Below, piece after piece: positions 4,334 to 52,411 of a stretch of DNA of 64,000 nucleotides. Position 1 is the first letter of the stretch. Every line of letters begins with the position of its first letter. This stretch comes from Escherichia phage phiWec187, in sequence record LC739536.1. The stretch is one strand, 5' to 3'. Position numbers and translations under genes: made by a program. Under the pieces are notes generated by a model. That model ran no database searches and was not told where the DNA came from. It saw nothing but the letters and a program-made list of their open reading frames with translations.

Positions 4334-4334
4334 C

Positions 4335-31334: not shown

Positions 31335-32022
31335 TTAGTCGTTCCTCCGCTTGCTTAAAAATATTTACATCGGCTTCACAGCCTAAGTATTCTCTACCTG
31401 TTAAAAGTGCCGCAACTTGTGTTGTTGCACTTCCAGAGAAGAAGTCTAAGACTACATCTCCTTCGTTGGTGTGTATATTAATAAGGTCACAAAACAAAGT
31501 CAAGTGTTTTTGTGTTGGATGAAAACGATCTGCTCCTTGATAGATAGGATACTCGAACACACCCTTATGGTAGGAAGCATTGAAGGTTGGCTTCGAACCT
31601 TTAACACAAACAATAGCCATCTCTTTAGCGTTACTAAGGTAGTTAACACCACTGTTGATGGGTACAGGGTTTGTTTTAATCCATTCAATAGTACGGAACA
31701 TACGAAAACCAAGCGGTTCAAGGATTTCACGTAGCTCCTGGATCTTCCAGATATCATACCAAACTATACAAGTACCACCTTTTCTAAGCACCCTGTAGGC
31801 TTCTTTGAATACTTCTTTAAAGTAAGGAATATCTACAACATCCCAATCACCAAAGTTGTAAGATACACGGAATCTATCCGTATCTTTTCCAGTCGGCTCT
31901 CCAGATTGAAAATTTGTGTCACGAGAAATAGCATATGGTGGGTCAGTAAGAATCAAATCTACACTATTGCTTTCGAGGGTTTGCAGGTAGTTTAACGCGG
32001 TGTTGTTTACAAATTCGCTCAT
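31291..32022 (-). CDS. DNA methyltransferase, beta class (N6-adenine or N4-cytosine)
   Basis: N-terminal DPPY catalytic motif (LILTDPPYAI) and C-terminal AdoMet motif (VLDFFSGSATT); motif order IV then I defines beta class. Confidence 0.7.
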   Translation of the reverse strand: MSEFVNNTALNYLQTLESNSVDLILTDPPYAISRDTNFQSGEPTGKDTDRFRVSYNFGDWDVVDIPYFKEVFKEAYRVLRKGGTCIVWYDIWKIQELREILEPLGFRMFRTIEWIKTNPVPINSGVNYLSNAKEMAIVCVKGSKPTFNASYHKGVFEYPIYQGADRFHPTQKHLTLFCDLINIHTNEGDVVLDFFSGSATTQVAALLTGREYLGCEADVNIFKQAEERLNEYTEQQNHPESTD

Positions 32023-34219: not shown

Positions 34220-37200
34220 TCAATGACAACTAGCCCATGAGTTACCAACATCGTAACCAGCAGTGAGAGGTACATTAAGATTGTAATACTCACCAGCTTT
34301 ATTAACAGCGATAGATGCTAATTCTCCAGCACGACTGTAGGCTGTAAACCAACCACCTTTCGGAGATTCATGTACGTTAGCCCAAATCTTGCCAGTACGT
34401 TTCTCTTCCTCTTCTTTCCAGGTATTAACTTTATCCAAACATTCTTTATCAATTTTCTTTTGTTCTTCTGGATCATCAACTTGAGTCCAACCTAAAGATT
34501 CTTTAGAGAACCATTTAAAATGCACCAGATCACGAGTTACTTCAAGCTGTGCTTCATCGTGATATGCAATCATTTGTTGAACGAATGACTTATTTTTCCA
34601 GTCATCAACAAAAAAGTCAACAGCTAATCCTTCTTCTTCGATAAGATCGTCGTAGATAACCATTGCTCTTTTTGCACAAATAACACCACCACTCTGGAAC
34701 AGAGAGTTAAGTATTGCGTGTGCAGATCGTGTAGGTACTTTTCTACCATCAATACCGAGAATGTATTTCTTACCTGTTTTAACCCAAAAATCATGCAGAC
34801 GTTCTTTAAGAAGCGCAAGAGGTTTTGCAGCTTCCCAGAAAGCATCGTATACAAGCTGTCCTGTATACATATCACTACCTATAGTTTTTGCTACTTTTGC
34901 AGCTTGAGCGCCGTACGTGCAGTTACCTGTCAACGTGATAAAACCATTCTGACGCATAACAAAAGATTCATTCTTGGTTGAGATACAGAATACATCTGTT
35001 ACTCGTGAAAAAGCTCTTGTCAACCTCTGTCCTGAAATAGTTTGTCCGTTATTGATTGCCAACGTTAACATGCCATCTTTTTGAACAGAACCATACGCAA
35101 TATTACCTGTCATATTGATAGCCAAAGAAACAGCGTCGCTAATCTTACCTTTCTTTTGACGGATAACAAGACTGCCGTTTGGACGCTTATGACCATCTGC
35201 CATCCAGAATGCCTCTAAGAATGCTTCCAACACAGCTTGACCTTGATTAGCAATTAATGTAGACCAGTCCACTTCGTGCTTATTTTGACCCACTTCAACG
35301 CCACATTTAGTCAAAAATTCCCTAAACTGACTCTTATTAGGACGTAATGAATGCATCGTTCCAGATACATACTCGTCAAATGTGAAGATATCTCCCACAG
35401 CCTCACGTGCTTCTTCTAAGAATTTTTTCTCATCTTGATCTACCGTGACTGTAATACCCATTACTTTATTTCTGGCTTTGCCAGACCACTTATAGTAGCC
35501 ATCCGAAAGAAGCCAGCCTAAGAAACGACCTTCTTCCACTGTTAGAGTAGACACCACACCAGATCGCCCTGCTGCAATTATGTTTGACTCCGAGTTTAAA
35601 TCCTCTGTAGATCTACGCTCCACTTGCATATACTTAACATTGTTACCATCTGATCGCATAGTTTTTCTCTGTGCGTTAATCCACATATGATCGTTAGTAA
35701 CTTCTACTTTGAACCACTTGTTACCGAGAGAGACAACTTCTGCATCGTTATAGTCCCACAGCTTAAGAATAGGGGTATATTCGTAAAGAGCGGTGTGAGT
35801 ATTATAAGATAAAACTTCATCCCCTACAAAAAGATCTTTACGTTTCTTCCAACCCGTTCTTGTTAACACTTCCGTATTATCTACAGGTACACAACCGTAT
35901 TTAACGCTCTTAGCAGGACCACGTTCAAACTTACGTCCAATAATATCAGTAATATGTTTTGCCATCATAGTATGCACATCGTTTGGTTTTTCTAACAGAA
36001 GTGCATTACAGTAAGCATGATCAGGATTATCATATCTCCACGTATAATGCGACTCAATCTTCGCCTCTAATGAATCAAAGTCATAACCAATCTGGAAGTA
36101 TTTAGGAACCTCTACACCAAATAAGTTACGCATTTCATATCCGTACAGAGATGTTACACGTGGGATATTTGCTACTAACCTATGTTTCATACGAGATGTA
36201 GCTGCATCACACGTTGCAGCAGGAGTTGGTATACGACCATCAGCCCTTACTGCTGCCAGATAACCTTTATCGTAATCCTCTTCTTCTTCCCAATCAGCAC
36301 CACCCCCTAGAATAGAGTTCCTACGGTGTTTATACGTAAGATACTGCACAACCTGCGTAGCATAAGGAAACTTTTCACCTAGTGCTTCCAAGTTAGGACA
36401 AATATCTTTCTCTTGCCCTTTTGTAAAGGAAGGGTTAGTAAGCACTTTAACACCACGACCTTTAGCTTTAGCAATACGATCTCTTAGTTTCCATTCCAAA
36501 GTTTCTGGTGTGCACTCCAGATGATCACATCTGTCCTGGCAGAAATTAGATGCTAATGTTTGATCAACATAGTCACGAATGGCTTTCTCCATTTGTGCTT
36601 CATCTTTCTTAATCTTAGTGCCAGATTTAAGAGTGATATCTTTATCTTTATATTCAGATGGACTCCAACCTAAACCAACTAACCAATTTTTAATATGTGT
36701 TGTGTCGTCTAAAGTAGCAGGTACTGTAGGATCACAAATAGGTTCTTCTGCTGGAATAGGTAGTTTAAACTCTTTACCTAATGCAAATAACCACCAACCA
36801 TCTTCTTTTTGTACAAGTTCACCAGAATGTTTCTCTGCAAACTTTATCATGTTACTTGAAGGTTCACCATTCTTTTTAAACTGTAGTTTAGGTGGAATGA
36901 ATGATTTCAAATAACCTTTAGTAGCAGGTTTAGGAGGTAGCACAGGTTCTGCCTCTAAACGACATGCTTCCATTCGAGCATCCAGATCACGAATATTATC
37001 TTCTGCTTGTTTCATGTTGAAAGCAAAGCCACGGTGCTCTTGACGTGTAATAATATCAGCTACACGTTGTTCTAAGTTAAATGGTTCAGACCACTTATTA
37101 TAATCACCCCACTCTTCCATCAAATAACGGAACACTGCGGTGTTAGCTTTGTTATCGTAAATACAGTAATACAGCATATCTGCTGCAAATGTTCTAAATC

Positions 37201-37768
37201 TTTCAGTTTCAGGGATGTTTTTTCTGAAATCAATTTTAACATCCCCTCCAGCTTTCTTAGATAACTCTGCCAGACTATGACCACCGAAGCGATCAGGGTT
37301 TAGTGTCTTACTTAAGATCATAGTATCACAAATTTCAATGTTACTATTACCCCAAGTATTGTACTTAATACTGTAGTTGAGTTTAAAAAATAATTTAATT
37401 GCCAGTAAGTCGAAGTTAATGATGTTGTGTCCAACTACTTTGGTAATTTTATAGTTTGAATTACCTTTAAATTTACCTGTTCCGTTTACAAAATCAGGAA
37501 AATCTTTAAGAGGGAAATGGGTATATTCTAAATGCTCATATTCCTCCAGTCGGTATTCATACTTTCCGTCAGTCTCAACATACGGACGACCATCGAAAAG
37601 ATATTTATCACCATCATGGAAAGCAATAATCTCTCCAGTATCATGACTTTCGCACACAATACAGTGCATTGCAAAACTATCTTTTAAACGATATGGACTT
37701 GCCAAGTAATCTACACTTTCGTCATTAAGCAAGTTGTTACTTTCAATGTCGAAAGTAAAAGCTCCCAT
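34220..37768 (-). CDS. family A (T7-like) DNA polymerase with 3'-5' exonuclease domain, interrupted by an intein
   Basis: Exo I FDIESNN; motif A DFDSLEAKI; motif B RGPAKSVKYG split by the intein and resuming CTYGAQAAK; motif C AYHDEAQLEV. Confidence 0.85.
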   Translation of the reverse strand: MGAFTFDIESNNLLNDESVDYLASPYRLKDSFAMHCIVCESHDTGEIIAFHDGDKYLFDGRPYVETDGKYEYRLEEYEHLEYTHFPLKDFPDFVNGTGKFKGNSNYKITKVVGHNIINFDLLAIKLFFKLNYSIKYNTWGNSNIEICDTMILSKTLNPDRFGGHSLAELSKKAGGDVKIDFRKNIPETERFRTFAADMLYYCIYDNKANTAVFRYLMEEWGDYNKWSEPFNLEQRVADIITRQEHRGFAFNMKQAEDNIRDLDARMEACRLEAEPVLPPKPATKGYLKSFIPPKLQFKKNGEPSSNMIKFAEKHSGELVQKEDGWWLFALGKEFKLPIPAEEPICDPTVPATLDDTTHIKNWLVGLGWSPSEYKDKDITLKSGTKIKKDEAQMEKAIRDYVDQTLASNFCQDRCDHLECTPETLEWKLRDRIAKAKGRGVKVLTNPSFTKGQEKDICPNLEALGEKFPYATQVVQYLTYKHRRNSILGGGADWEEEEDYDKGYLAAVRADGRIPTPAATCDAATSRMKHRLVANIPRVTSLYGYEMRNLFGVEVPKYFQIGYDFDSLEAKIESHYTWRYDNPDHAYCNALLLEKPNDVHTMMAKHITDIIGRKFERGPAKSVKYGCVPVDNTEVLTRTGWKKRKDLFVGDEVLSYNTHTALYEYTPILKLWDYNDAEVVSLGNKWFKVEVTNDHMWINAQRKTMRSDGNNVKYMQVERRSTEDLNSESNIIAAGRSGVVSTLTVEEGRFLGWLLSDGYYKWSGKARNKVMGITVTVDQDEKKFLEEAREAVGDIFTFDEYVSGTMHSLRPNKSQFREFLTKCGVEVGQNKHEVDWSTLIANQGQAVLEAFLEAFWMADGHKRPNGSLVIRQKKGKISDAVSLAINMTGNIAYGSVQKDGMLTLAINNGQTISGQRLTRAFSRVTDVFCISTKNESFVMRQNGFITLTGNCTYGAQAAKVAKTIGSDMYTGQLVYDAFWEAAKPLALLKERLHDFWVKTGKKYILGIDGRKVPTRSAHAILNSLFQSGGVICAKRAMVIYDDLIEEEGLAVDFFVDDWKNKSFVQQMIAYHDEAQLEVTRDLVHFKWFSKESLGWTQVDDPEEQKKIDKECLDKVNTWKEEEEKRTGKIWANVHESPKGGWFTAYSRAGELASIAVNKAGEYYNLNVPLTAGYDVGNSWASCH
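34922..35893 (-). mobile_element. intein (324 aa) with LAGLIDADG homing endonuclease, inserted in polymerase motif B
   Basis: starts at Cys626 (CVPVDNTEVL), ends at Asn949 (FITLTGN) followed by Cys+1; LAGLIDADG-like FLGWLLSDGY and LEAFWMADGH; boundary codons checked on the nucleotide sequence. Confidence 0.75.
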
Positions 37769-38264: not shown

Positions 38265-40037
38265 TTAATAAAAACCATCAGGAATATTCTCTGGGTTACT
38301 TGTGTATTGATCGTAATCGTGAAGTGTAGCTGTTTTAATCTCATAGAAGAAACTACCTGCTGCACCAGTCTCTGAGAACTCACGGTTCTTTAGAATGTAG
38401 CAATATGTGCGGTTACGTTCCATAGGATCTTCAGCTTGTTTATCACGCTCCAGCGCAATTGTGATACCAGCACCTTTAGCAAGGAAGCTACTACCCATTG
38501 CATCATCTTCTACAATATGTTCATTACTATTGTTAGAAGACTTTTTAACGTGTGAAATTACAACAATGGTAATTGCGTACTCTTTCATAATGCGTTTGAG
38601 CCACGTCGCAAGTTCCTCTTGTTGTGACACGTCCATACCAGAAAGCAAGTCAGAATAAGGGTCGATAACAAGAATGGTTACTCCGAAATAAATAATCATT
38701 TCCAGAACCTTCTCTTTAATCACATCTACGTTAGCCCCACGATCATCACAAACATAGAAACGTGGTGTTCCATCTTCTCGTTCGTAAAAATCACGAATCT
38801 TTTCTTCATTATCTTTTAAAATCTTTTCCTTCTCTTCTTTTGTTTTACGGTGAAGAGGGATGTGCAAGAATGAAGACAGTAAGTTACGAGAATACTTCTT
38901 ATACGTTGCCTCCAAAGATAAAATACCAAGAGTATGTTCTGGGTGTGCAAGAATAATGTGCTTCGTAATCTCGTTAACCAACAGTGTTTTACCGATACTT
39001 GTTTTTGCAAGTATAACAGTAATTTCTTCTTCTACCAAGCCTCCACCTAACATATTAGAAGCAACACGCATGAATGGAGGAAGGGTGATCATTTTAGCTT
39101 CCAGGCATTCCAAGGCTGCTTCATACAGTACGTTAGAAGCATAAACACCAGCAGGTGTGTACAGTTTAGCTTTGAAAAAGCGATCAAGAAAGTGATCAAT
39201 TTTTCCTTCTACTAGTGCCTGGTTAGGATCTTTAACATCCGTTAGTTCCATCACGTAAACTTTATTACGTGGTAAGATTTTAACACATTTCTCAACTGCT
39301 GCACGTCCAGCTTCATCATTATCCATACACAGAACAATCTTTTTAAATTGATCTAAGAATTTATAACGATGTTGAAGCTGCTTATGCAGAGATGTTTCGC
39401 CACAAGTGCCAGATACTACAGCAGGAACAGGATATTTACCGCCCTTGTTATAATCTTTTAGCATCTGTGTTGCAGCCAGCATATCGTGTTCACCACCAAC
39501 GATTAGAATAGTACCGCTGTGGTTACGATATTTAAACTCACCAAAAAGATCACAATCCTTTCCTGTTTCACCGATAGGATGCGAAAAATCTTTTGGATCA
39601 ATACGTTGTTTATACCCAGCAATATTGTAATCTTTAGTTGTAGGGTATAGTGTTGAAATTACTTCGCCAGTAGCTTCATCGTACATATAGCGTACACCGA
39701 AAGGTTTAGAGATATCTTCACGAATACCGCGATAACCTTTTGGATTAGTTCCAGTGCTGGCTTTTAGTTTATCATGTACTTCTGGATTAAACTCACTACC
39801 CAAGATATCCTCCTCTTCAATTTCTTCGCCGTGTGCATTTAACCATTTTTGATCAGGGATAGTAAAGCCACAAGAAAAACAATGTGCTCCTCGATGGTCT
39901 TCATCGGCATCTAAGCCATATACCATCAAATTGTTTTGTGATCGATCACGCCCTCCTTTCATACAACGAGGACACCCAGTATGTCCTTCTTGACTTAAAT
40001 CAATGTTATACCCATATTTATTTACAACATAAGACAC
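38265..40037 (-). CDS. bifunctional DNA primase-helicase (T7 gp4-like)
   Basis: 590 aa; N-terminal zinc-binding Cys motifs (CPRC ... CFSCG), central primase region, C-terminal DnaB-like helicase with P-loop (AKTSIGKT) and Walker B-like VIDPYSDL. Confidence 0.8.
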   Translation of the reverse strand: MSYVVNKYGYNIDLSQEGHTGCPRCMKGGRDRSQNNLMVYGLDADEDHRGAHCFSCGFTIPDQKWLNAHGEEIEEEDILGSEFNPEVHDKLKASTGTNPKGYRGIREDISKPFGVRYMYDEATGEVISTLYPTTKDYNIAGYKQRIDPKDFSHPIGETGKDCDLFGEFKYRNHSGTILIVGGEHDMLAATQMLKDYNKGGKYPVPAVVSGTCGETSLHKQLQHRYKFLDQFKKIVLCMDNDEAGRAAVEKCVKILPRNKVYVMELTDVKDPNQALVEGKIDHFLDRFFKAKLYTPAGVYASNVLYEAALECLEAKMITLPPFMRVASNMLGGGLVEEEITVILAKTSIGKTLLVNEITKHIILAHPEHTLGILSLEATYKKYSRNLLSSFLHIPLHRKTKEEKEKILKDNEEKIRDFYEREDGTPRFYVCDDRGANVDVIKEKVLEMIIYFGVTILVIDPYSDLLSGMDVSQQEELATWLKRIMKEYAITIVVISHVKKSSNNSNEHIVEDDAMGSSFLAKGAGITIALERDKQAEDPMERNRTYCYILKNREFSETGAAGSFFYEIKTATLHDYDQYTSNPENIPDGFY

Positions 40038-40049
40038 ATGATTCTCCTA

Positions 40050-40319
40050 CTAAAATGATTCGTTTGTCTCCATAATATATTGCATTTCCAAATCTTCCAT
40101 ATGTTTCTTAAATTGGTAAACAATTTCCGATGGGGAAATATCTATATCAAAAAGTTCTTTTGTACCAGAATAAAACCTAATACCGTCAACAATAAGGCCA
40201 CCATAATAATCCCAATCACTTTCTCGTGAGAAAGGATTAGGTTCTTCATAATAGTAATCTACTTCAACAATAATAGGTTCTTTATTATCTTGTTTATACT
40301 CAAAATCAAAAGTGTTCAT
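40050..40319 (-). CDS. hypothetical protein
   Basis: 89 aa acidic ORF. Confidence 0.25.
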   Translation of the reverse strand: MNTFDFEYKQDNKEPIIVEVDYYYEEPNPFSRESDWDYYGGLIVDGIRFYSGTKELFDIDISPSEIVYQFKKHMEDLEMQYIMETNESF

Positions 40320-41263
40320 TATAAATCCTCGATAAGCAGTCTGCGGGTTTCATTTAAATCATCAATATTGTAGTTATCTCTTACATACTTAGCAAGAGCC
40401 AATCCTTTCTCAATACAAACATCAGGAGATTCGATTAAGTATTCTACAATATCTTTCCACTCTTTAACTGAATCAGCAAAGAAGATTAGATCTTTAAATT
40501 CTTCAGTATAATAGTTCTCTCGTGGTGAACAAACGAGTGGCAAACCTTTAGCACCAGCTTCAAGAATTTTTAAATTACTTTTGGCATTATTAAAATGATT
40601 ATTTACTAACGGAGCTATGGAGATTTGATGACCATCGTATGCTTCCATATAACACTCATAAGGACGAATACCTTCATAAACACAATCTGGTTGAATATCT
40701 TCTTTAATTTGCAACCATTGAGCACTACTTAACTCTTCGTGATCTCTACGAAATCCACATAAAGTTAAATCTTTACCAAAAGCAGGAAGAATTGCTAAAT
40801 CATGTTTATGGGTTTCACTTCCCGCCCAAACCAGTGGGCTTTTAGAATAACGATCTTTAGTAAGAACAAACTGCCCTTCATCAAAAGGTAGTCCGTTAGG
40901 CACAATATGTACATTATCATTGTATTGGCTTAATTCGACCTTTAATGCTGGAGTTGTTGTAGTTACAAGATCGCTTCTTTCAAGGAACCATTTTAGGTCA
41001 TCTCGGATTTGATTTTCAAATAATCCTTCCAGCATATGCCCTTCAGGAATAATTAAAGAATCATCCAGATCCATTACCAATTTAAACCCAAGTTGTTTAA
41101 GAGCCAGGAAACCTGGCTTTCCACGTGTTGGTACTCCATTGAACACAAAAATATTATGCTTAGGATTAATGGTCAGTTTGCGTTTATATGGCAAAATGAT
41201 TCTATGAAAATCACATACACTATACTTTTCATTTCCGCGTGTGTCAAGAATAATATTAGGCAT
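40319..41263 (-). CDS. glycosyltransferase, GT-B-like (paralog 1)
   Basis: 314 aa; C-terminal KILEAGAKGLPLVCSP resembles the GT1/GT4 nucleotide-sugar-binding region; paralogous to 41275..42249. Confidence 0.45.
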   Translation of the reverse strand: MPNIILDTRGNEKYSVCDFHRIILPYKRKLTINPKHNIFVFNGVPTRGKPGFLALKQLGFKLVMDLDDSLIIPEGHMLEGLFENQIRDDLKWFLERSDLVTTTTPALKVELSQYNDNVHIVPNGLPFDEGQFVLTKDRYSKSPLVWAGSETHKHDLAILPAFGKDLTLCGFRRDHEELSSAQWLQIKEDIQPDCVYEGIRPYECYMEAYDGHQISIAPLVNNHFNNAKSNLKILEAGAKGLPLVCSPRENYYTEEFKDLIFFADSVKEWKDIVEYLIESPDVCIEKGLALAKYVRDNYNIDDLNETRRLLIEDL

Positions 41264-41274
41264 ATAACTCCTTG

Positions 41275-42249
41275 TTAAAGACTTTCAATAACTTGACGAC
41301 GCAGTTCATTGGCATCTGCAAGATTATAATTAAGACGAACGTGTTCTGCAAGCATCATACCACGATCTTCTGTGTATCTAGGGTTCCTCATTAGCTTGAC
41401 AACTTCATAATGCCAAGATGCTTTAGAGTCTGCATAGATAACAGCCTTTGCATCTACCGGATTGAAGTACGGCAGCACAGGAGAACAGATAATAGGAAGA
41501 CCCTTTGCACCTGCTTCCAAAATCTTCAAATTGCTTTTACAGTTGTTGAAGTCATTATCTACCAGAGGAGCAATTGCAATACTGTGACCGTCATACACAG
41601 ACATATACTCACCTAAATTTTTAATAGCTGGTTTATACTGTGCATTTGGAATTTTACGTTTTACTTTAACCCACTCCGCAGTAGTTAGATACTGACTATT
41701 ATTTCCAACAGGTGCAGAAGGATACACTTCATACCCTGCAATTGTCAATAGCGTATCATCAAATGTATTAGCTACAAGAGATAAATCAGGTTCATGGCTT
41801 GCTCCTCCCGCCCAAATAATAGGCGTGTCAGAATAACGGTCTTTTGTCAAAGTAAATTGACCTTCGTCGTAAGGTAGTGCGTTTCTAATAACGACAACAT
41901 TACGATTTAAATGACGAATTTTGTAAGCTAGGTATTCTGTTGTTACAGTAACCACATCTGCTAACTTAATCATCTCTACAATAGTCTTTGAGTGATTAGT
42001 AAATACGCCAGCCATATAATGTTCAGGATTAAGCGAATAAAAATCATCTAAATCAACAATAATCTTAACACCTTGTGCCTTCAGGCGTTTAACCTCGTCT
42101 GATCCACGAGAATACACTCTATTAAAAACTAAAACGTCTTTCTTAGGTTTAAACGTATTTCCAGCAAATGGCATTACAATACGATGGTAATCACAACCAC
42201 TGCCTAACTTATTATCACACTTAAGTACAGGAGTATTAGGATTTACCAT
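41275..42249 (-). CDS. glycosyltransferase, GT-B-like (paralog 2); start re-assigned to ATG at 42249
   Basis: shares CDYHRI and IAIAPLVDNDFNNCKSNLKILEAGAKGLPIICSP blocks with paralog 1; AGGAGG RBS 9 nt upstream of ATG 42249. Confidence 0.45.
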   Translation of the reverse strand: MVNPNTPVLKCDNKLGSGCDYHRIVMPFAGNTFKPKKDVLVFNRVYSRGSDEVKRLKAQGVKIIVDLDDFYSLNPEHYMAGVFTNHSKTIVEMIKLADVVTVTTEYLAYKIRHLNRNVVVIRNALPYDEGQFTLTKDRYSDTPIIWAGGASHEPDLSLVANTFDDTLLTIAGYEVYPSAPVGNNSQYLTTAEWVKVKRKIPNAQYKPAIKNLGEYMSVYDGHSIAIAPLVDNDFNNCKSNLKILEAGAKGLPIICSPVLPYFNPVDAKAVIYADSKASWHYEVVKLMRNPRYTEDRGMMLAEHVRLNYNLADANELRRQVIESL

Positions 42250-42922
42250 ATTTTTGAGCCTCCTCATAAGAGATAAAAGTTTTACCATTGCGAAGATCCT
42301 CCAGTGATTGTTTATATTGTTCCCAGTTTACACCAATCCCCTGTTCTTTCTCTTCTTTTGACAGATTTGCAAAAGGTAAAGGATTGTCTCCAAACACATC
42401 GTCAGGATGGATAAACGCCATAATTCGAATAGGACATGGTACGCCGTGAATACCTCGGTTCAAACCTGCAAGTGGAACGCGCTGAATCCACTCTGCATCT
42501 TCATATCCATAACCGTGGGTGTATGAGCGGAAATAGCCAGCTTTCTCAATAACTGCACGGGAATACATACCAAACTGGCACATGCCTAGCTCCCAAATAA
42601 CTACTTCTCCTTCAATACCTTTTACTTTATCTTTAAAGTATTCAGGCATACCAAAGAAATCCCAACCATTTTCCTTCGCCTGTTTTACAAAATATGTTTC
42701 CCAACCTGGAACAACAGGATAACAATCATCATCAAAAATAAACCAGTAGTCATACCCTTCATCATAAAACTTTTTCATCAGTTCATTACGGGCATATGCA
42801 ACACCTTTTCGTTCACGATCATACTGTACAACAAAAGTAGCATTAGGATCAGTTACAAGATAATCTTTAAGAGGACGCTTACCTACAGTAATAACACCAA
42901 CACCAATTTTTGTATTTTCCAA
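42236..42922 (-). CDS. glycosyltransferase family 2-like (GT-A fold)
   Basis: 228 aa; DxD-type acidic motif FIFDDDCY and downstream YGYEDAEWIQR resembling the GT2 ED...R block. Confidence 0.5.
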   Translation of the reverse strand: MENTKIGVGVITVGKRPLKDYLVTDPNATFVVQYDRERKGVAYARNELMKKFYDEGYDYWFIFDDDCYPVVPGWETYFVKQAKENGWDFFGMPEYFKDKVKGIEGEVVIWELGMCQFGMYSRAVIEKAGYFRSYTHGYGYEDAEWIQRVPLAGLNRGIHGVPCPIRIMAFIHPDDVFGDNPLPFANLSKEEKEQGIGVNWEQYKQSLEDLRNGKTFISYEEAQKYGKS

Positions 42923-42931
42923 AATAACTCC

Positions 42932-43495
42932 TTAAATAATTTTATTCATGTCTTGACAATGTAAAAGGTGTGAAACAGCTTTTCTAGGATCATCATTACC
43001 TAAACGGTATGTGTGAAATAAATATAACCCACGTAGTAAACCTAGCCTTTTATTGTTAGCGTGCAATGCTTTAGAGAAAATTATATCAAACTGTATTGAT
43101 CTTTCCTCAAAAGGAATTTCATTCCACAGACTCTTACGAAAGAGAAGAAAGAATCCTGCTAAGATAGCATCTGTAGGTACTTCCTCTATTGAGTTTCCCC
43201 ATTCTAGATGTGCTCTTTTTGCAATCTCAATGTGGTGTAATATATTCGGATCTTCACTTCTTTCATTATTAAATAATTGATATGTTGATCCCAATCTGTT
43301 ACAAGATGCACCAAGAACATCAAAATCAGGATTTGAACGGACAATTGATTCCAGCCAAGCAGGTTGTTCTGGAAGAAGAAACATTGTATCAATGTCTCTT
43401 AGGCAAATCCAACTATCTTCTGGTAAGACACTTATTGTGTCATTGATACCTTTTCCAATATCTCCAGAAAGATAGGGAGTTATGTGAAATATCAT
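42932..43495 (-). CDS. putative glycosyltransferase (GT-A-like, DxD motif)
   Basis: 187 aa; CLRDIDTMF acidic motif; adjacent to three glycosyltransferase genes. Confidence 0.3.
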   Translation of the reverse strand: MIFHITPYLSGDIGKGINDTISVLPEDSWICLRDIDTMFLLPEQPAWLESIVRSNPDFDVLGASCNRLGSTYQLFNNERSEDPNILHHIEIAKRAHLEWGNSIEEVPTDAILAGFFLLFRKSLWNEIPFEERSIQFDIIFSKALHANNKRLGLLRGLYLFHTYRLGNDDPRKAVSHLLHCQDMNKII

Positions 43496-43552
43496 ACTCC
43501 CTCCGTATTATTACTTTAGCATTTTTAGACTAAAAAGTCCAAATGGTTTTAC

Positions 43553-43747
43553 CTATTGATTACGTTTTGCGAGTTCCATTTGGATAGCTAAACTGTGATC
43601 TCGTGCTTCCATATACTCTTTATATGTTTCATTAAGATGATCACGACAAACATCACGCAGTTTAATCAGTTTATCTGTAGGGATACCACTAAGATCATCC
43701 CAAGATTTTACAACTTCACCAGTATCATTGATCCCAATGGTTTTCAT
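43553..43747 (-). CDS. hypothetical small protein
   Basis: 64 aa ORF. Confidence 0.25.
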   Translation of the reverse strand: MKTIGINDTGEVVKSWDDLSGIPTDKLIKLRDVCRDHLNETYKEYMEARDHSLAIQMELAKRNQ

Positions 43748-44243: not shown

Positions 44244-44753
44244 TTAGCGATAGAATTGATGTTCTTTGTAGCGGTACACTAGAACCATATCTTTTTCCCA
44301 GTGTGCTCTTATTGTAGATTTTTTAAAGTATAATGCTCCTTTTGTAATATCTAATGCAATTCGTAATTCTGGAAAATGCGTATCGAGATAAAGTAGACGT
44401 TCTGCTATAGCCTTAGCTTCCTTCCACTTATCACGTTCCATAACGTTGAATGTCTTTGTGTAAGAGAATTGTCCTTTTTGAAACAAAACTTCTTTTATAG
44501 TATCAGGGAAATATGAATCTCTAGCCCTATTCAATACTACATTACCAACAGCAGACATACCGCGCTTTCCTTGATTACGACTTTCTGCATAGATTGCACA
44601 AGCTAATAGATTTTCTTTACTATCACGCTTTGTACACTTGTGAACTACTTTAGCAGTTTTTACGTTTGCAGCTTCGGCTTGCGCCACAACAGGTGTAAAT
44701 GTAAAAGCAGTTAAGGATAGTAACGCAATTGCGACAAAGGTTTTTATTGACAA
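44244..44753 (-). CDS. secreted cell-wall hydrolase (SleB/Hydrolase_2-like), candidate endolysin
   Basis: 169 aa; N-terminal signal peptide with AQA-EA cleavage-like site; LACAIYAESRNQGKRGMSAVGNVVLNR resembles cell-wall hydrolase family 2. Confidence 0.5.
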   Translation of the reverse strand: MSIKTFVAIALLSLTAFTFTPVVAQAEAANVKTAKVVHKCTKRDSKENLLACAIYAESRNQGKRGMSAVGNVVLNRARDSYFPDTIKEVLFQKGQFSYTKTFNVMERDKWKEAKAIAERLLYLDTHFPELRIALDITKGALYFKKSTIRAHWEKDMVLVYRYKEHQFYR

Positions 44754-44846: not shown

Positions 44847-45449
44847 TTAGATATTGTAAACCTTCGTATGAGTTACTACACCATCTTCTACAAAATCAAT
44901 ACGTTCTTGATCCGTAACTAGTGCAGACAACACTTTAAATTTAATTTTTACACGTTCAAAAGCTGGTTGACCATCTTTAAGATAATTATGTTCGGTTGTC
45001 ACTGTCTTGTTTACAAAATCAACTTTCGCTTTACCGTTTTCGCGTAGGTGGAATGTTTTTCCTGCTTTGTACACAATTTCAACATTACCTTCGAGAATAA
45101 TTCCTTCAAAAAGTTCACCCTCTTCTTCATTTTCTTCACTTTTGAACAGACGACGAAACTCTTCCATATCAAGATAAACAACATCTTCAGAATAACTATC
45201 AGTAAGGTATGTCTTACCATCCATTAACCCGAAATATTGCCAGATCGCAGAATAAACATCACTAGTTGATCCAAGGGTTTCTCTGAGTTTAGTTCCACGG
45301 ATTACTTCATAAACTTCAAAATTGAAACCAGACTGCAAAGCATCAAACAGTACATCACTAACTTCTACAGCATAATCTTGATTGTTGTCAACATCCACAA
45401 GAAAATTGCCGCTACGAATAAGTTTTTGACCTTCTAAAGTAATACCCAT
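44847..45449 (-). CDS. hypothetical protein
   Basis: 200 aa acidic ORF downstream of TerD. Confidence 0.3.
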   Translation of the reverse strand: MGITLEGQKLIRSGNFLVDVDNNQDYAVEVSDVLFDALQSGFNFEVYEVIRGTKLRETLGSTSDVYSAIWQYFGLMDGKTYLTDSYSEDVVYLDMEEFRRLFKSEENEEEGELFEGIILEGNVEIVYKAGKTFHLRENGKAKVDFVNKTVTTEHNYLKDGQPAFERVKIKFKVLSALVTDQERIDFVEDGVVTHTKVYNI

Positions 45450-45501: not shown

Positions 45502-46098
45502 TTACTCGAACCAATCGTCGCCAGCGCCAAACGCTTTAACTACATCGTAAATGTCAAGCCCAGCTTTACCCACACCATACGCTTTCAGTTTCCATTCGCT
45601 ATCTTCTCGCACCAGGGAGGCAACGTGGCAAATGGTGTTACCTGCAAGTTCTGGAGCCAAGAAGTCAAAGTCCAGCAGTTCAACATTACGTTCATCATCG
45701 AAGATTTTAAGGAAACCTTCGGTAGCGTGACCAAGGCGTTTCTTACCCGTTTCGTCATCAATAGTAATTACGAATGCAATTTCCTGTGCTTCAGCAGAGA
45801 TATTATCCAGTGTAACATCAATCTGCTCCATCTGTCCTACACCATCACGAACATCTTCACCTGCAAAAGTAGAACGTTCAGGATCAAATTTCTGCGCGTA
45901 GCACACCAGGTGACGAGGAGACAACAGTTCCGGCAGACCAGATGCATTGTGTCGGCAAATCAGAGCACTAACATCCAGATCCAGTTTTTCGTTAGATTTC
46001 CAAGAGAATTCCAGACGAATGCGTTTCAGTGCTGGTGCAATCTTTTTCAGAGAAACTTTTTCGCTAGAACCTTTTTTCAGGGAAATTTTCTGAGTCAT
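45502..46098 (-). CDS. terD: TerD-family stress protein
   Basis: 198 aa; ISLKKGSSEKVSLKK, LDLDVSALIC, EIAFVITIDD, SEWKLKAYGVGKAGL align with E. coli TerD blocks as I recall them. Confidence 0.8.
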   Translation of the reverse strand: MTQKISLKKGSSEKVSLKKIAPALKRIRLEFSWKSNEKLDLDVSALICRHNASGLPELLSPRHLVCYAQKFDPERSTFAGEDVRDGVGQMEQIDVTLDNISAEAQEIAFVITIDDETGKKRLGHATEGFLKIFDDERNVELLDFDFLAPELAGNTICHVASLVREDSEWKLKAYGVGKAGLDIYDVVKAFGAGDDWFE

Positions 46099-46170
46099 AA
46101 TTTATTATCTCCTTTGTTGTTAATTTACGTTGTCTATTTTACTAATCTTTTCTACAAAGTCAAGCGTTTT

Positions 46171-46965
46171 TTACGCTTTTGCTCCAAATTTTTTAACCCA
46201 CTCACCAAACTCTTCGGATAGCAGTTTATCGTAAAGTTCTTCGTCAGACAAGGACAAATCTGCAATACCGATAAAATCAACATTATCGTATTCTTTTGCC
46301 AAGTCTTTCAGGAATTTAAAGTTTGCATTACCTACACCAACCATAAACCAGTAAACAGGCGTATTGCGGTGTTTGTTCAGTAAGCTACGTACTGCTGAAG
46401 TATCCATGTTCTCCCCGTCAGTTTGGAAGAAAATCATTGCAGGAGTACGATCAACTTGTGCATCAGTATCTACAACCTGTTCTACAACAGTACGTGTTAC
46501 TTCTACAAGTTCTTTTTTACCAGTTAGTTTAGCAAGGAAACCTTTAGCCGGAACTTCTTCATACTCAACGACTTCGCGTGTAATATTTTTCATAGGTACA
46601 CTACCGAAGTATGTATCATAGATCTCTTGCATTACTGGAGCATAAGCAGTACCACCGTTGATGCAAACATTAGACATGCAAGAGCCGACATAATCATCAT
46701 ACACATCAGCCGTTGCAGGAGGCAGTTCAAAAGAAGAACTATTGAAAGCCCACATGTCAATCTGTGCATTATCATCAAACTTCATACCAAACGGCAGTAG
46801 CTTACCTACAAAATCACTGACAGTGCCATCACGATATAGCTCACACATACTACCCGAAATATCTAAGGCGCTACCGACACGAAGAACAACATCGTTAATC
46901 TTTTTCTTACGCAGAGATACAGTAAGAGTCTCTTGACGTTTTTTAAGACTGATTTTATTGGACAT
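46171..46965 (-). CDS. von Willebrand factor A domain protein (TerY-like)
   Basis: 264 aa; MIDAS-like DISGSM motif after a TerD-like ISLKK N-terminus; adjacent to terD. Confidence 0.55.
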   Translation of the reverse strand: MSNKISLKKRQETLTVSLRKKKINDVVLRVGSALDISGSMCELYRDGTVSDFVGKLLPFGMKFDDNAQIDMWAFNSSSFELPPATADVYDDYVGSCMSNVCINGGTAYAPVMQEIYDTYFGSVPMKNITREVVEYEEVPAKGFLAKLTGKKELVEVTRTVVEQVVDTDAQVDRTPAMIFFQTDGENMDTSAVRSLLNKHRNTPVYWFMVGVGNANFKFLKDLAKEYDNVDFIGIADLSLSDEELYDKLLSEEFGEWVKKFGAKA

Positions 46966-46966
46966 A

Positions 46967-47236
46967 TTATTTCTCCTTTTTGACTGTAATGTTAGTAACT
47001 TCTAAATCCACTTCTACCACTTCTATATCATATAAAATACAGTTAAGTTGACCTCTTTGTGAACCGTTCAGACACATTGCTTGGTTTGTATTAACCTTAA
47101 TAAACACTAAGTTTCTGAACGTATCTAAACCAGCATCTTGATAGGCAAAATAATATACAAATGTATCACCTGCGTCAAGTTCTCCAAAACATTTAGGTTC
47201 ATATGATTCGTCGTCTTTGATATTAAATTTAAGCAC
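46967..47236 (-). CDS. hypothetical protein
   Basis: 89 aa ORF. Confidence 0.25.
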   Translation of the reverse strand: MLKFNIKDDESYEPKCFGELDAGDTFVYYFAYQDAGLDTFRNLVFIKVNTNQAMCLNGSQRGQLNCILYDIEVVEVDLEVTNITVKKEK

Positions 47237-47792
47237 TATCTTCTCCTTTACCTACTTTCAAGCCTAAATAGAAAGCCTCTCTAGTGATTTTTTGCAACTC
47301 GTTTAAAGAGATAGTTACAACTAAATCATCTTCAATTTCTAGCTTTGAGTCTTCTTCTGTCTCAATGCAAGTATTATGCACTTTGTGGTAAGGATTGTCA
47401 ACACGTTTAAATTTATTATTTTCAGTGCTGAAGAAGCAATCTGGATCTTCTTCCACATCACCCCAACCCTGGTTAGGATCTTCTTCAGATCTTTCTGTTG
47501 GGATCTCACCTGTAAAGTGCTCTTCTAATACCAGAGCAATCCCATCTCCAGGATCGGAAGAGAACATCAAATTACAAACTTCTTCCCAAGGCATAGACCA
47601 CTTAAATCTTTTACGATTGCCATGTTTATCTTCTTCGTTAGAGAAAACACTACCATAGCTATCATAATTCCCATACATCTCTTCGACAACCTTACCACCT
47701 TTCAAAAGAAATAGGTAGCAAGGAGAGCCATCGAAAGAGGTAGAAAGAGCAGCATTACCAGACTCTTTGCACAAGAAACTAAAACACCCCAT
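47229..47792 (-). CDS. hypothetical acidic protein
   Basis: 187 aa ORF within the Ter-like cluster. Confidence 0.3.
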   Translation of the reverse strand: MGCFSFLCKESGNAALSTSFDGSPCYLFLLKGGKVVEEMYGNYDSYGSVFSNEEDKHGNRKRFKWSMPWEEVCNLMFSSDPGDGIALVLEEHFTGEIPTERSEEDPNQGWGDVEEDPDCFFSTENNKFKRVDNPYHKVHNTCIETEEDSKLEIEDDLVVTISLNELQKITREAFYLGLKVGKGEDSA

Positions 47793-47992
47793 TATACACC
47801 AGCCTTAAGATCAATTAAAGCCAAAGTTGTTTCAGAGTGTGTTTGCTCGTCTACAGGTGCAGTCATATGATAATACAAAAAATCTTCGGCATCATACCAA
47901 TCTGATTCTTGACCTTGTTTCCAACCATCAATGAAAGCATCTTCCATAATGGTTTGCAATTCTTCACGAGTTAAGTGAATATCTTTACTCAT
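47792..47992 (-). CDS. hypothetical small protein
   Basis: 66 aa ORF. Confidence 0.25.
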   Translation of the reverse strand: MSKDIHLTREELQTIMEDAFIDGWKQGQESDWYDAEDFLYYHMTAPVDEQTHSETTLALIDLKAGV

Positions 47993-48225
47993 TACACATT
48001 CTCCTCTTTTACCAAGTCCATCGTTGAACTATCAAAACCATCTTTAGAAGAATAGGTATAGACAGAACGTAGTTCTCGCAGGACAGTGAATACATTAGGA
48101 TCATCTAACCAAGCATCCTGGAGGAGAACATAACGATCTTCATTGTCATACTGAACAGCAATCATAGAACCAGACAGTTTGTAAATTTTAATATTCATAA
48201 TATATTTCTCCTTAAAGTAGACCAC
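47992..48225 (-). CDS. hypothetical small protein
   Basis: 77 aa ORF. Confidence 0.25.
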   Translation of the reverse strand: MVYFKEKYIMNIKIYKLSGSMIAVQYDNEDRYVLLQDAWLDDPNVFTVLRELRSVYTYSSKDGFDSSTMDLVKEENV

Positions 48226-49315
48226 GTTTAACAGTTTGAATCATACCATCTTCAAGAGATTGCACTTCTTGAATGTAATCAATACGCGCAGCACGGGCTT
48301 CAGTGTTGATTCGGTTAGTTTCTTCCAACATTTTAACTAAGTTTTCTTGATCGCGACGTAATGTTTCAATATCCAATACTTGACGATTAGCAAGTTGTGT
48401 AGCTTCAATTTGGTTTTGTGCAGCCAGATCACTACCCATTGCAATAGCAGCATTAAATTCATTCAGCACATTGTTCTGTGTATCGGCTGCTTTCTTCTGG
48501 CGTAGACTTTCAATATACATAGAAAAGTTTGCAGAGTAAGCAGGGATAACATTATTCACAATATTACGGGCTGATCGCATCAAACTTGCAGATACTTTCT
48601 GCATACTTTGTACACGTGGCCCCATCTGAACACACAGTAAACGCAAGGCTTTCAGGTCTGCAATACGAATTTCAAGCAGATCCATAGTATCACGAGTACG
48701 TTGACGCTCTTCTACTTCATTTTCAGGTAGTGTATTAAGGCGAACTTCTTCTTTTTCATAAGTAGCTGTTAGAAGCTCTATATCCCTGTTTAAGCTAAGA
48801 GCATATTTTGCAATAGCCTCTTCTAAACGTTGCAGATATCGTAAAGAATCTTCTTCTTTTTTCAAGTCTGTTTGTAGTGTCTTTACCAAACCTTCAATAC
48901 GATTATTGATGGTGTCAAATTCACCAAACAAATCTTCTTTCATACCTAATACTTTCTTAACCAGTTTACCTAAGCCTTTAGATTGTTTAATAGAGTTAGG
49001 ATCAAGTTGCTTTGCTTGCTTAATAAGTGCAGTTAAACGTTCACTCATTTCATCCCCCTGAGATGAACGCTGGTGTTTAAGCACTTCAGCATTAAGGTTA
49101 CGAAGAGTAAGTCCTGCATCAGCACCAACTTGTTCAATCTCTTCACGAGACATTGGAGGCAGCATTTGTACAGGTCGTGCAACAGCAGGGGCATATACAG
49201 GGCTTGCATCCATAGCACTTGGAGCAAACAAAGACTTACTTTTTTCTGTTGTTGCCGTGAATACACTCATTTCAGACGGTTTGCTTTTTACGGCACTGAT
49301 AAAAGGACTGGACAT
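48212..49315 (-). CDS. TelA-like toxic anion resistance family protein
   Basis: 367 aa, largely coiled-coil, with size and architecture of TelA/KlaA; context with TerD and TerC; no single diagnostic motif. Confidence 0.45.
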   Translation of the reverse strand: MSSPFISAVKSKPSEMSVFTATTEKSKSLFAPSAMDASPVYAPAVARPVQMLPPMSREEIEQVGADAGLTLRNLNAEVLKHQRSSQGDEMSERLTALIKQAKQLDPNSIKQSKGLGKLVKKVLGMKEDLFGEFDTINNRIEGLVKTLQTDLKKEEDSLRYLQRLEEAIAKYALSLNRDIELLTATYEKEEVRLNTLPENEVEERQRTRDTMDLLEIRIADLKALRLLCVQMGPRVQSMQKVSASLMRSARNIVNNVIPAYSANFSMYIESLRQKKAADTQNNVLNEFNAAIAMGSDLAAQNQIEATQLANRQVLDIETLRRDQENLVKMLEETNRINTEARAARIDYIQEVQSLEDGMIQTVKRGLL

Positions 49316-49383
49316 TCAATTTCCTCCGTATTCTTTAGTAGATGGTGATACCTCTGTACCACCATCATAACACAAATTAAGTA

Positions 49384-50235
49384 TTAAACAAACATATCTA
49401 AATAATTTGTAGTAATAAATGCTCCATCTGCTTCCAGATTAACATAACCAGTAGCATTAGTGGTTAAGAAATCCAGATCGAAGGACTCTTTAACACCCCG
49501 TACCTCAACACGAGAGATATCGAATACAGGTAGTGTAACAGCCTCTTCGTGCAATACCGTACCTTTGTAGGTTGCCTTAATGATAAACTTGATATTACCC
49601 GTTCCAGCATCATACAAAACACTTTCAAACCCTTTGAGAGTATACTTATCACCAGAAGTGAAGTGCAAAGTTGCTTTGTTTACAGTACGTTTTTTACGAG
49701 GAGTTCCTTTCACACGTTTATGATCACTACGTTTTTTGTATTTAGGAATGAATACAAACGATACATTGTGAAGAAAGGTATCAACATCAAGGATTTTAAT
49801 ATCCTCTGTTGCAGCAAATTTTGAAGTTGTTGCATCAAAATGCTTTTCCCGGCGATCATACATAAAGATATCAAACCGATCTTCTAAATCAAACAAATTA
49901 TGTATTTTAATTTCAGAATGCTTGCGCATTGCAGCAACCTTGAACTCTTCAAAACGTGGGTGTTCTACAAGTTCTTCAAGTTTTACACCAAAGACAGTAT
50001 ATTGCTTCGGAGTTTTTTCTGGTGTTGGCATTACAGAAGCATAATCACCGATTGCGCTCTTAAAGCAAAATTGTTCTTGACCTGTATTTTTACCAACGAA
50101 TTTACAGTATTCGTCATCGTGCATACTTTCCTGGGTAGTACCAACAAACTCAAAACCATCTTTATTCTTCTCAAGAATTTCTTGATTAAAGATCCAACCT
50201 TCCAGGCGATATACTTTACCAACTTCTAGTTTCAT
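49384..50235 (-). CDS. hypothetical protein
   Basis: 283 aa ORF between TelA-like and lipoprotein genes. Confidence 0.3.
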   Translation of the reverse strand: MKLEVGKVYRLEGWIFNQEILEKNKDGFEFVGTTQESMHDDEYCKFVGKNTGQEQFCFKSAIGDYASVMPTPEKTPKQYTVFGVKLEELVEHPRFEEFKVAAMRKHSEIKIHNLFDLEDRFDIFMYDRREKHFDATTSKFAATEDIKILDVDTFLHNVSFVFIPKYKKRSDHKRVKGTPRKKRTVNKATLHFTSGDKYTLKGFESVLYDAGTGNIKFIIKATYKGTVLHEEAVTLPVFDISRVEVRGVKESFDLDFLTTNATGYVNLEADGAFITTNYLDMFV

Positions 50236-50270
50236 CTGTTTCTCCTTCTTATTTAATCTGTATTAAATTA

Positions 50271-50861
50271 TTAACGACGACGTGAGCTACTAAAACTACG
50301 TTTCGACGAAGAATAACTTTTCGAAGACTTACTATAAGAGCTAACAGGACTTGAGTAAGACTTACCAGCAGAGTAATCACTATTCACTTTTGTTGTTGAT
50401 GGGCGTGAATACGTTTGTACACTTTGCTGCTTAATTGTGTTTTGTTTAGTGGTTGTATATGTATTTCCTTGTTTATCATAAAAACTATGCTTTTGTGTTG
50501 TATATGCTTTACTATTAGTTGTAGGAGCAGCGTTGTTATTGATAATTGTTGTATTGCTACCGCCATCTCTATAACCACCACCGCCACTATTACCACTCAA
50601 CATATGACCAAGAAGCATACCTGTAGCGAACTCACCTACGCCAGAAGAACCACTGCCGCCTCCTTGAACAACAACTGTTGAAGGTTGTGCAGGTGCTGCT
50701 TGAACAACTTGAGGTGCAGGCTGATTTACATATTGTTCATCTACCATCTGATTTGGTGTTTGTTGGTAACGTTGGTTTTGTACATTTTCAGAATCATCAC
50801 AACCTACCAGCAATGCACTACCTAATACAACTGCAACAATAAAAGATTTAATGTTTTTCAT
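50271..50861 (-). CDS. lipoprotein with Gly-rich and Ser/Tyr-rich low-complexity regions; start re-assigned to ATG at 50861
   Basis: signal peptide with lipobox LLVGC; GAGAGG-type RBS upstream of the second ATG; C-terminal SYSSPVSSYSKSSKSYSSSKRSFSSSRRR. Confidence 0.45.
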   Translation of the reverse strand: MKNIKSFIVAVVLGSALLVGCDDSENVQNQRYQQTPNQMVDEQYVNQPAPQVVQAAPAQPSTVVVQGGGSGSSGVGEFATGMLLGHMLSGNSGGGGYRDGGSNTTIINNNAAPTTNSKAYTTQKHSFYDKQGNTYTTTKQNTIKQQSVQTYSRPSTTKVNSDYSAGKSYSSPVSSYSKSSKSYSSSKRSFSSSRRR

Positions 50862-51093
50862 TTGTAACCCTCTCATTTAAAGTCTCAACACAATTTTTAA
50901 AATCTCTAGAGAAACAATACATCTGTTCTCCGTTCCTGTTGATAGTAATTGTATGGTTATCAATATATGTTGTCAAGATAAAAATCAAACAAAACAACCC
51001 TAGAGCAAAACAAATATTTTCAAACAGAATCCAAAGAACACGTAAAACCACCATCAGATCACCTCAATAAAGCCCCCGAAGGGGCTTAATGAA

Positions 51094-52397: not shown

Positions 52398-52411
52398 ATA
52401 AAGATCCTCTC

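Follow-up and report, generated by a model that had tools for sequence, protein, structure and literature searches.

Several phage systems that glycosylate DNA, among them those of the T-even phages, of RB69 and DLP3 and of the methyltransferase-TET-glycosyltransferase (MT-TET-GT) type, express glycosyltransferases (T4 α/β-glucosyltransferases, 5-hydroxycytosine arabinosyltransferases, TET-associated glycosyltransferases) alongside genes of DNA metabolism; several such transferases can act serially, and a phage-encoded supply of nucleoside diphosphate (NDP) sugars is possible (PMC13326640; bioRxiv 2023.12.21.572611). The known routes to hydroxymethyl or 5-hydroxy pyrimidines need a ThyA homologue, which is either a hydroxymethylase or a 5-hydroxy-dCMP synthase (PMC13326640), and an alternative route combines a cytosine methyltransferase with a TET-type dioxygenase (bioRxiv 2023.12.21.572611). 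Other phages direct such enzymes at the virion: gp110 of the cluster F mycobacteriophage Che8, encoded in the cassette gp108-110, is described in citing papers as essential for capsid glycosylation (PMC12363180). Giant viruses and chloroviruses have capsid and fibril glycosylation machinery of their own (PBCV-1 A064R, mimivirus R655/R699). Here we analysed a cassette of four glycosyltransferase genes (GT1 to GT4 in the order of transcription) in a stretch of 64,000 nucleotides from Escherichia phage phiWec187 (LC739536.1; hereafter the window), and tentatively propose that it would encode a dispensable glycan-assembly module acting on an acceptor other than DNA, most likely a virion protein.

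Nucleotide comparison places the window in a phi92-like myovirus (genus Justusliebigvirus, subfamily Stephanstirmvirinae), with 55 phage records of the phi92 group matching region 40000-43600 at 98-99.4% identity. The closest record for this region is Escherichia phage Eryne (PQ529420.1; 99.4% across the cassette), and questions that concern the whole genome were answered on Eryne as the nearest complete genome. In phi92 the four genes are gp163-166 and already carry the RefSeq label 'glycosyltransferase', and in the BASEL annotation of EmilieFrey (Bas61) the two larger ones are named 'putative disaccharide synthase'. The cassette genes are therefore not newly annotated, and published papers already comment on what they might do; no demonstrated function was found for them in the literature. 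The original prediction, made from the letters of the window, recognised an array of four glycosyltransferase genes between 40319 and 43495, and four minus-strand open reading frames (ORFs) are indeed found there (Table 1). It placed them downstream of the primase-helicase gene, which is wrong in the sense of transcription: because all of these genes are on the minus strand and the glycosyltransferase genes have the higher plus-strand coordinates, the cassette lies upstream of the primase-helicase and the DNA polymerase.

All four proteins matched PHROG glycosyltransferase families (E 1e-79 to 1e-149), so that a profile assignment is available for each, with thin support from Pfam; no NCBIfam match was obtained for any of them. 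Sequence and profile searches of the PDB with GT1, GT2 and the GT-B family gave nothing useful, and matches to a designed TIM barrel, conglutin and MtrB were set aside as chance matches. Because the PDB searches were uninformative, fold comparison was used after homologues had been collected and aligned and structures had been predicted for two of the four proteins, GT1 and GT2. A scan for hydrophobic segments found none in GT1-GT4 (maximum 19-residue Kyte-Doolittle mean ≤1.21). GT1-GT4 are thus predicted to be soluble cytoplasmic glycosyltransferases, two of them metal-dependent GT-A enzymes and two GT-B paralogues, and the profile, structure and alignment results bear out the earlier class calls (two paralogous GT-B-like proteins, one GT2-like protein and one DxD-containing GT-A-like protein). 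The G+C content of the four genes (0.34-0.39, against 0.379 for the window) gave no sign of recent horizontal acquisition.

The predicted structures of GT1 and GT2 (predicted local distance difference test scores of 91 and 88, respectively) both showed a clear GT-A fold, and their structural neighbours include the polysaccharide-building enzymes K4CP, TarP/TarS, RmlT and GlfT2. The DxD motif of GT1 (D34xD36) is invariant among its aligned homologues, and in GT2 the residues F63-D64-D65-D66 and Y138-G139-x-E141-D142 do not vary across 14 homologues with identities as low as 35%; these residues fit metal-dependent GT-A catalysis, in which their role is putative. GT2 has a single Rossmann-like α/β/α nucleotide-sugar-binding domain. 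For GT1, no Pfam match was obtained at E≤1 and no match in NCBIfam, the only families found being PHROG 14179 and 26101. Its relatives, 1220 representatives at E≤1e-3, are stand-alone proteins or form the C-terminal domain of proteins of ~400 amino acids, and GT1 defines a sizeable GT-A family of ~1200 representative clusters without a curated profile in Pfam or NCBIfam. GT2 did not match Pfam Glycos_transf_2 (PF00535) at E≤1, and its Pfam matches were both below threshold (TAGT, 23.3 bits, threshold 27.5; Glyco_transf_7C, 13.3 bits, threshold 23); its homologue Pacc40 gp98 passes PF00535 (27.0 against 23.3).

GT3 and GT4 share 41% identity over their full length and both matched phrog_7162 (3.7e-149 and 4.4e-145, respectively). 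Like bacterial GT-B proteins of the GT4 type, GT4 passes Pfam Glyco_trans_1_2 (PF13524; 26.9 bits, gathering score 25), with a further weak match of its N-domain to Glyco_transf_4 (residues 85-125), and the profile of the GT-B family weakly matches TreT, MshA-like and other GT4 structures in the PDB. GT3 remained below threshold for Glyco_trans_1_4 and Glyco_trans_1_2 (14.7-18.1 bits). The pair differs from the bacterial enzymes in being short for GT-B proteins (314-337 amino acids) and in its EX7E-like region, where the second glutamate of GT4 (E235) is invariant and the first is replaced and its position not conserved; R21, D67, D68, N123, H152, D155, K228, S229 and K232 are the other invariant residues of GT4. 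In divergent relatives with a single GT-B gene, that gene is closer to GT3 (46% to GT3 and 40% to GT4 in the metagenomic relative L005; 64% and 39% in Klebsiella phage FKP3), and for this reason GT3 is taken as the ancestral copy by sequence comparison and GT4 as a lineage-specific duplicate. The GT-B family is nearly confined to phage contigs of ~135-155 kb. A bacterial member of 411 amino acids (35% identity) on the Burkholderia dolosa contig JAIMDN010000082.1 (3025-8440) adjoins genes for an intimin/invasin-type protein and a 571-residue protein without assigned function, a neighbourhood that hints at adhesin glycosylation.

The four genes are packed in the tight, operon-like manner proposed for them at the outset, with gaps or overlaps of at most 14 nucleotides (nt), or 53 nt under one reading of the GT3 start. 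The start of GT1 is preceded by the Shine-Dalgarno site GGAGG. The junction between GT1 and GT2 reads TAA-GGAG-N7-TTG (9-nt gap). GT3 has two candidate starts, at 42288 and 42249, each with a Shine-Dalgarno site and an ATG; the first gives an overlap of 53 nt with GT2 and the second one of 14 nt. A gap of 11 nt separates GT3 from GT4. The stop codon of GT4 overlaps the start of an 89-residue ORF (TAATG), and 12 nt with an AGGAG site lie between that ORF and the GTG start of the primase-helicase gene. No terminator-like site was found within the cassette in the scan, the nearest one upstream on the same strand being a hairpin at 45492-45477. Promoter-like sites occurred at chance level (32 sites, 27.8 expected).

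The complete four-gene cassette was found in ~140 Justusliebigvirus and Phapecoctavirus records, its proteins being 65-78% identical between one genus and the other. It lies upstream of the primase-helicase and PolA genes even in relatives whose identity is as low as 43-46% (L005, L006 and L019), and in the metagenomic relatives L006 and L019 it again lies between a Ter-like gene set and primase-helicase/PolA. The gene order in L005, a 135-kb relative, is GT1, an NDP-hexose 4,6-dehydratase gene, GT2 and a single GT3-like gene. Several natural variants have lost parts of the cassette (variant records OZ035770.1 (L020), PV682554.1 (L021) and PP895363.1 (L011)). In two assemblies of 'Justusliebigvirus alia', one hybrid gene stands for GT3 and GT4, with 67% and 72% identity to the two, a finding consistent with recombination between these paralogues; in phage 92CQ, GT1 is gone together with ~17 kb upstream; and FKP3 retains only GT1 and a frameshifted GT3-like gene. 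As judged from these genomes, the cassette is conserved but dispensable, and it is eroding in several relatives. Four records named 'Campylobacter phage', with C. jejuni as host (MG065639, MG065645, MG065656 and MG065689), share 98.3% identity with phi92-like coliphages over the cassette, and mislabelling or contamination is the probable explanation.

A possible source of donor sugars is encoded outside the window. The genus encodes RmlB, RmlA, RmlD and RmlC of the dTDP-L-rhamnose (deoxythymidine diphosphate L-rhamnose) pathway; annotations of phi92 and of most genus members include all of rmlB-A-D-C, and in Eryne RmlC and RmlD score above the NCBIfam equivalog cut-offs. The pathway was noted by Olsen et al. 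2020 (PMC7552041), who speculated on rhamnosylation of hydroxymethylated nucleotides, and Maffei et al. 2021 (PMC8594841) referred to that of phi92-like phages as a 'putative dTDP glycosylation machinery'. The set is not always intact: a 557-bp deletion in Eryne (14322-17026) has created a 436-residue chimera of rmlB and the 3' half of rmlA, and phage cardinal has lost ~60% of the rml region, both with all four glycosyltransferase genes kept, whereas FKP3 is reduced in both respects and has only rmlC and rmlD. E. coli makes dTDP-sugars itself, and probably for this reason the phage pathway appears not to be indispensable to carriers of the cassette.

The genomic company of remote homologues points to glycan building rather than to DNA modification. 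In Cellulophaga phage phi18:1, gp41 carries a GT1-family domain, adjoins a Methyltransf_24 gene and is flanked by portal/head-morphogenesis and protease/major capsid genes. Contig L007 has a GT1 homologue with terminase on one side and portal/capsid genes on the other, accompanied by a GT2 gene, a Polysacc_deac gene and two Methyltransf_24 genes, and in L013 another is the first gene of an 8-kb cluster with GT-D-like, TOD1_MUCI70, DegT, GDP-mannose-dehydratase-like and Methyltransf_24 genes. A 36-kb phage encodes a pair of GT2 (hhalign 98.2%) and GT-B homologues directly upstream of terS-terL-portal-protease-capsid, and the neighbours in L017 are a GT2 gene, a second GT-B gene, an epimerase, a radical SAM enzyme and DegT. 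Remote homologues thus appear, by annotation of their neighbours, to sit in phage glycan-building clusters, which hold 4,6-dehydratases, aminotransferases (DegT) and domains of the sugar O-methyltransferase type, several of the clusters being inside or beside head modules.

Beyond its own subfamily, the phage relatives of GT2 found by tblastn were confined to 341 mycobacteriophage records and a few records of Mycolicibacterium and Gordonia phages. GT2 is homologous to Pacc40 gp98 (hhalign 99.2%, E 1e-19), which occupies the locus of Che8 gp108/109 and is separated by one small ORF (gp99) from gp100, a protein 85% identical to Che8 gp110. Che8 gp108 contains both a GT2 and a Methyltransf_24/TylF domain, the latter of the type that accompanies GT1 homologues elsewhere. 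The cassette therefore resembles the mycobacteriophage cassettes (Che8 gp108-110 and Pacc40 gp98-gp100) in having several soluble glycosyltransferases, in being dispensable, in lying outside the structural module and in the true homology of GT2 to a protein encoded near a Che8 gp110 orthologue. It differs from them in its Gram-negative host, its two GT-B proteins, the lack of a methyltransferase and its place in a replication operon. From the profile comparisons, the link runs only through the Pacc40 gp98-type protein. The likeness to the giant-virus and chlorovirus machinery is one of fold only, at 7-8% identity, with another host domain and another virion architecture, and gives no evidence of common descent. 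The cassette is grouped with the auxiliary glycosylation cassettes of phages.

In the reading that we tentatively favour, the four transferases would be co-transcribed with the replication genes as an accessory operon and would assemble, step by step, a short glycan, of at most about four sugars, on an acceptor other than DNA. Nucleotide sugars would serve as donors, 6-deoxyhexoses among them, and the genus has the complete RmlABCD pathway for dTDP-L-rhamnose; virion proteins, one or several, would be the most likely acceptor if the mycobacteriophage and giant-virus cassettes are taken as a guide. Early synthesis would have the machinery and the sugar pool ready once the structural proteins appear. 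The identity of the donors, the order of action and, above all, the acceptor are inferred; for the acceptor, the inference that it is not DNA draws on the soluble glycosyltransferase operon, the deoxysugar pathway, the neighbourhoods of the homologues, the lack of a DNA-activating enzyme and the unprotected-DNA phenotypes described below. Virion proteins or host polymers, which the original prediction gave as alternatives to DNA bases, fit the comparative evidence better than the bases do. Several points weigh against a virion acceptor. In the phi92 lineage, the cassette is located in the replication module and not in the structural module, and it lacks an accompanying sugar methyltransferase; rml genes and glycosyltransferase genes are not always lost together, as Eryne and cardinal illustrate; and the arguments from gene neighbourhood rest on a handful of metagenomic contigs. 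Comparison of the GT1, GT2 and GT-B profiles with Che8 gp108, gp109 and gp110 detected no homology, GT-A and GT-B homology at ~26-30% identity does not fix an acceptor, and the reachable literature yielded no glycoproteomic data on virions of the phi92-like or phAPEC8-like phages. One study found no glycoproteins in ten phages (PMC12894461); none of these was identified as phi92-like, and the result was not used here.

The original prediction left the substrate open but put the decoration of modified DNA bases first. On this idea, the four enzymes would act on a modified base of the phage DNA, after replication or at the fork, and so evade nucleases. The cassette has a conserved position directly ahead of the primase-helicase and DNA polymerase genes and in their orientation, which speaks for the idea, as do weak matches of GT2 to Pfam TAGT (6.8e-5) and to phrog_842 ('beta-glucosyl-HMC-alpha-glucosyltransferase'), the presence of TAGT-domain proteins at ranks 37 and 48 among the BFVD fold matches, and the speculation of Olsen 2020 cited above. 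However, the TAGT match does not reach the gathering score and is confined to residues 16-75, where the generic nucleotide-binding/DxD region lies; the TAGT-domain fold matches have query-normalised TM-scores of 0.40-0.47, against 0.74 for the top viral match; and none of the four proteins matched the AGT or BGT families. A base-activating enzyme is likewise missing from what was searched. No base hydroxymethylase had been visible in the window, which is consistent with the annotation of Eryne; a search of the remaining genome, carried out on Eryne, found no ThyA-family hydroxymethylase or 5-hydroxycytosine (5hoC) synthase, the sole thymidylate synthase being of the ThyX type (Pfam Thy1, TIGR02170) and not of the ThyA family. 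Eryne does encode a C5-cytosine DNA methyltransferase (PF00145, 2e-43; 4258-5247), ~60 kb from the cassette and outside the window, which could provide the first step of an MT-TET-GT route, but Tet_JBP gave no match among 30 Eryne proteins scanned (five with the pharokka call 'DNA methyltransferase', those of nucleotide metabolism and unannotated ones, mostly of at least 150 residues). The one faint cupin-like signal met in the search for a TET/JBP dioxygenase, in the protein of 200 residues at 44847-45449 of the window, was below threshold. A Dam-like N6-adenine methyltransferase gene is present inside the window (31291-32022, minus strand). Some of the pharokka labels 'DNA methyltransferase' in Eryne are wrong, one belonging to an XkdF-type protease domain and one to a NADAR domain. 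The phenotypes of close relatives point the same way as the gene content. In published work, the phi92-like phages Bas60-62 were 'exceptionally susceptible' to six restriction-modification systems (types I, II and III), to which the hypermodified T-even phages are resistant. BREX reduced the plating of phage Pau by 7 logs, and Pau was not among the 13 phages sensitive to BrxU, an enzyme that degrades DNA containing 5-methylcytosine (5mC), 5-hydroxymethylcytosine (5hmC) or glucosylated 5hmC (PMC8565348). Across the cassette, Escherichia phage Paula and the window share 98.7% identity; the equation of Pau with Paula rests on the BME3 paper, which links Escherichia phage Paula to the BREX/BrxU study. 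A search of the literature brought up no nucleoside analysis. The neighbourhoods of remote homologues hold sugar-modifying and head genes, with no DNA-modification enzyme in their Pfam listings. The cassette phages thus differ from the known DNA-modifying systems in that no ThyA-family hydroxymethylase, 5hoC synthase or TET/JBP enzyme was found (in Eryne), in the lack of a significant AGT, BGT or TAGT match and in near-identical phages behaving as DNA-unmodified, and we consider base glycosylation improbable; the ThyX-only genome, the missing AGT and BGT matches and the restriction and BREX phenotypes are what disfavour it. Still more improbable, to the point of being a long shot, is a variant in which the cassette and RmlABCD would place a rhamnose-containing glycan sparsely on DNA with no need of a ThyA-type hydroxymethylase, for which the sites may be C5-methyltransferase motifs oxidised by an unrecognised enzyme, or a direct modification of bases or backbone. 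Such sparse glycans would leave the DNA sensitive to EcoRI, EcoRV, type I and III systems and BREX and would let it escape BrxU; if true, this would be a new DNA-modification chemistry with a dTDP-sugar donor.

Two further explanations share with the proposed virion glycan an acceptor other than DNA. The enzymes may remodel envelope glycans of the host by acting on undecaprenyl- or core-linked intermediates (of O-antigen, enterobacterial common antigen (ECA), NGR glycan, lipopolysaccharide (LPS) core or capsule), with the effect that superinfection is blocked or progeny are kept off debris. Entry of phi92-like phages depends on surface glycans (ECA/NGR, LPS core), L-rhamnose is common in O-antigens, cytoplasmic O-antigen glycosyltransferases also occur without transmembrane segments, like GT1-GT4, and the polysaccharide builders among the structural neighbours of GT1 and GT2 would suit such a role. 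Nevertheless, this explanation seems unlikely. No flippase, polymerase, Gtr-type or other membrane component accompanies the cassette, and seroconversion systems are typical of temperate and not of virulent phages. The cassette is, moreover, unchanged in phages from rough K-12 and from varied smooth or encapsulated hosts, and its remote homologues lie in the head modules of unrelated phages with very different hosts. Somewhat more doubtful again is the modification of a small molecule or a host protein, for instance the predicted nucleoside-like product of the adjacent Ter/PRTase/HAD gene set or a host factor involved in takeover or counter-defence. On the strand of the cassette, a conserved cluster ~2 kb upstream encodes TerD, vWA-TerF, TelA, TerC, Macro, PRTase_3 and HAD proteins, the synteny of Ter genes and cassette is repeated in L006 and L019, and 92CQ lost GT1 and the whole Ter region in one deletion; for a host protein, the intimin/invasin-type neighbour of the Burkholderia dolosa homologue hints at protein glycosylation. 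Yet the terminator-like hairpin at 45492-45477 divides the Ter genes from the cassette unit, remote homologues of all three glycosyltransferase families were found without Ter genes, the presence of four transferases and of a deoxysugar pathway speaks more for an oligosaccharide than for one modification of a small molecule, and no target can be named.

The phi92-like and phAPEC8-like myoviruses are broad-host-range coliphages that have repeatedly been isolated for therapy and biocontrol. If the proposed virion glycan is real and made by the phage, as in Che8, it would bear on antibody recognition and pharmacokinetics and possibly on adsorption, and it would help to decide whether glycosylated virions are peculiar to actinobacteriophages and giant viruses or widespread among tailed phages. 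To judge from gene order, the cassette also shows how poorly adjacency to replication genes predicts DNA modification: its position is stable over deep divergence, yet its homologues elsewhere are found in head modules. This is of relevance to automated calls of 'DNA hypermodification' loci. The main value of the analysis is that, in a phage group used for therapy, the hypothesis is redirected from DNA to virion or other acceptors.

Table 1. Coordinates of the cassette genes and of neighbouring genes in the window.
Feature	Position	Strand	Description
GT1	42932-43495	-	187 aa, minimal GT-A-fold glycosyltransferase (predicted), DxD motif (D34xD36)
GT2	42236-42922	-	228 aa, TTG start; GT-A / GT2-like (predicted), FDDD and YGxED motifs
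GT3	41275-42288	-	337 aa, GT-B-type (predicted); 5' end overlaps 3' end of GT2
GT4	40319-41263	-	314 aa, GT-B-type (predicted), putative duplicate of GT3
89-aa ORF	40050-40319	-	Acidic, conserved, no assigned function; between GT4 and primase-helicase
Primase-helicase	38265-40037	-	Pfam Toprim_2 1e-10, DnaB_C 7e-16; GTG start
Family A DNA polymerase	34220-37768	-	Downstream of primase-helicase in the same direction of transcription
TerD	45502-46098	-	
vWA-TerF	46171-46965	-	
TelA	48212-49315	-	
TerC	51094-52071	-	
Macro	52628-53461	-	
PRTase_3	53337-54194	-	
HAD	54187-54861	-	

Among the neighbouring genes (Table 1), the 89-residue ORF encodes a product with a net charge of -14 that matched phrog_4240 (8.4e-35), and a gene for 85-89 residues is found at the equivalent position in L005, L006, L019 and FKP3. 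The DNA polymerase has 1182 residues, against 859 in Eryne and EmilieFrey. The difference is due to an insertion of 324 residues (626-949; ~34922-35893), which begins with Cys and ends in TGN followed by Cys, in flanking sequence of 98-99% identity; it has the appearance of an intein-like element in a family A polymerase.

Upstream of the cassette unit, this virulent phage carries a complete Ter-type gene set (45502-54861, minus strand), the synteny of which is shared by L006 and L019. A SleB-type cell-wall hydrolase with a hydrophobic N-terminus (44244-44753, minus strand; Pfam Hydrolase_2, 6.5e-20) is encoded four genes upstream of GT1; it is located far from the annotated endolysin/spanin genes of Eryne, and its position is shared by L006, L019 and FKP3. 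The first gene past the hairpin at 45492-45477 encodes a protein of 200 residues (44847-45449, minus strand) with a sub-threshold match to Cupin_3 (17.4 bits), which, if it is a double-stranded β-helix enzyme, could be a sugar-nucleotide enzyme or an oxygenase.

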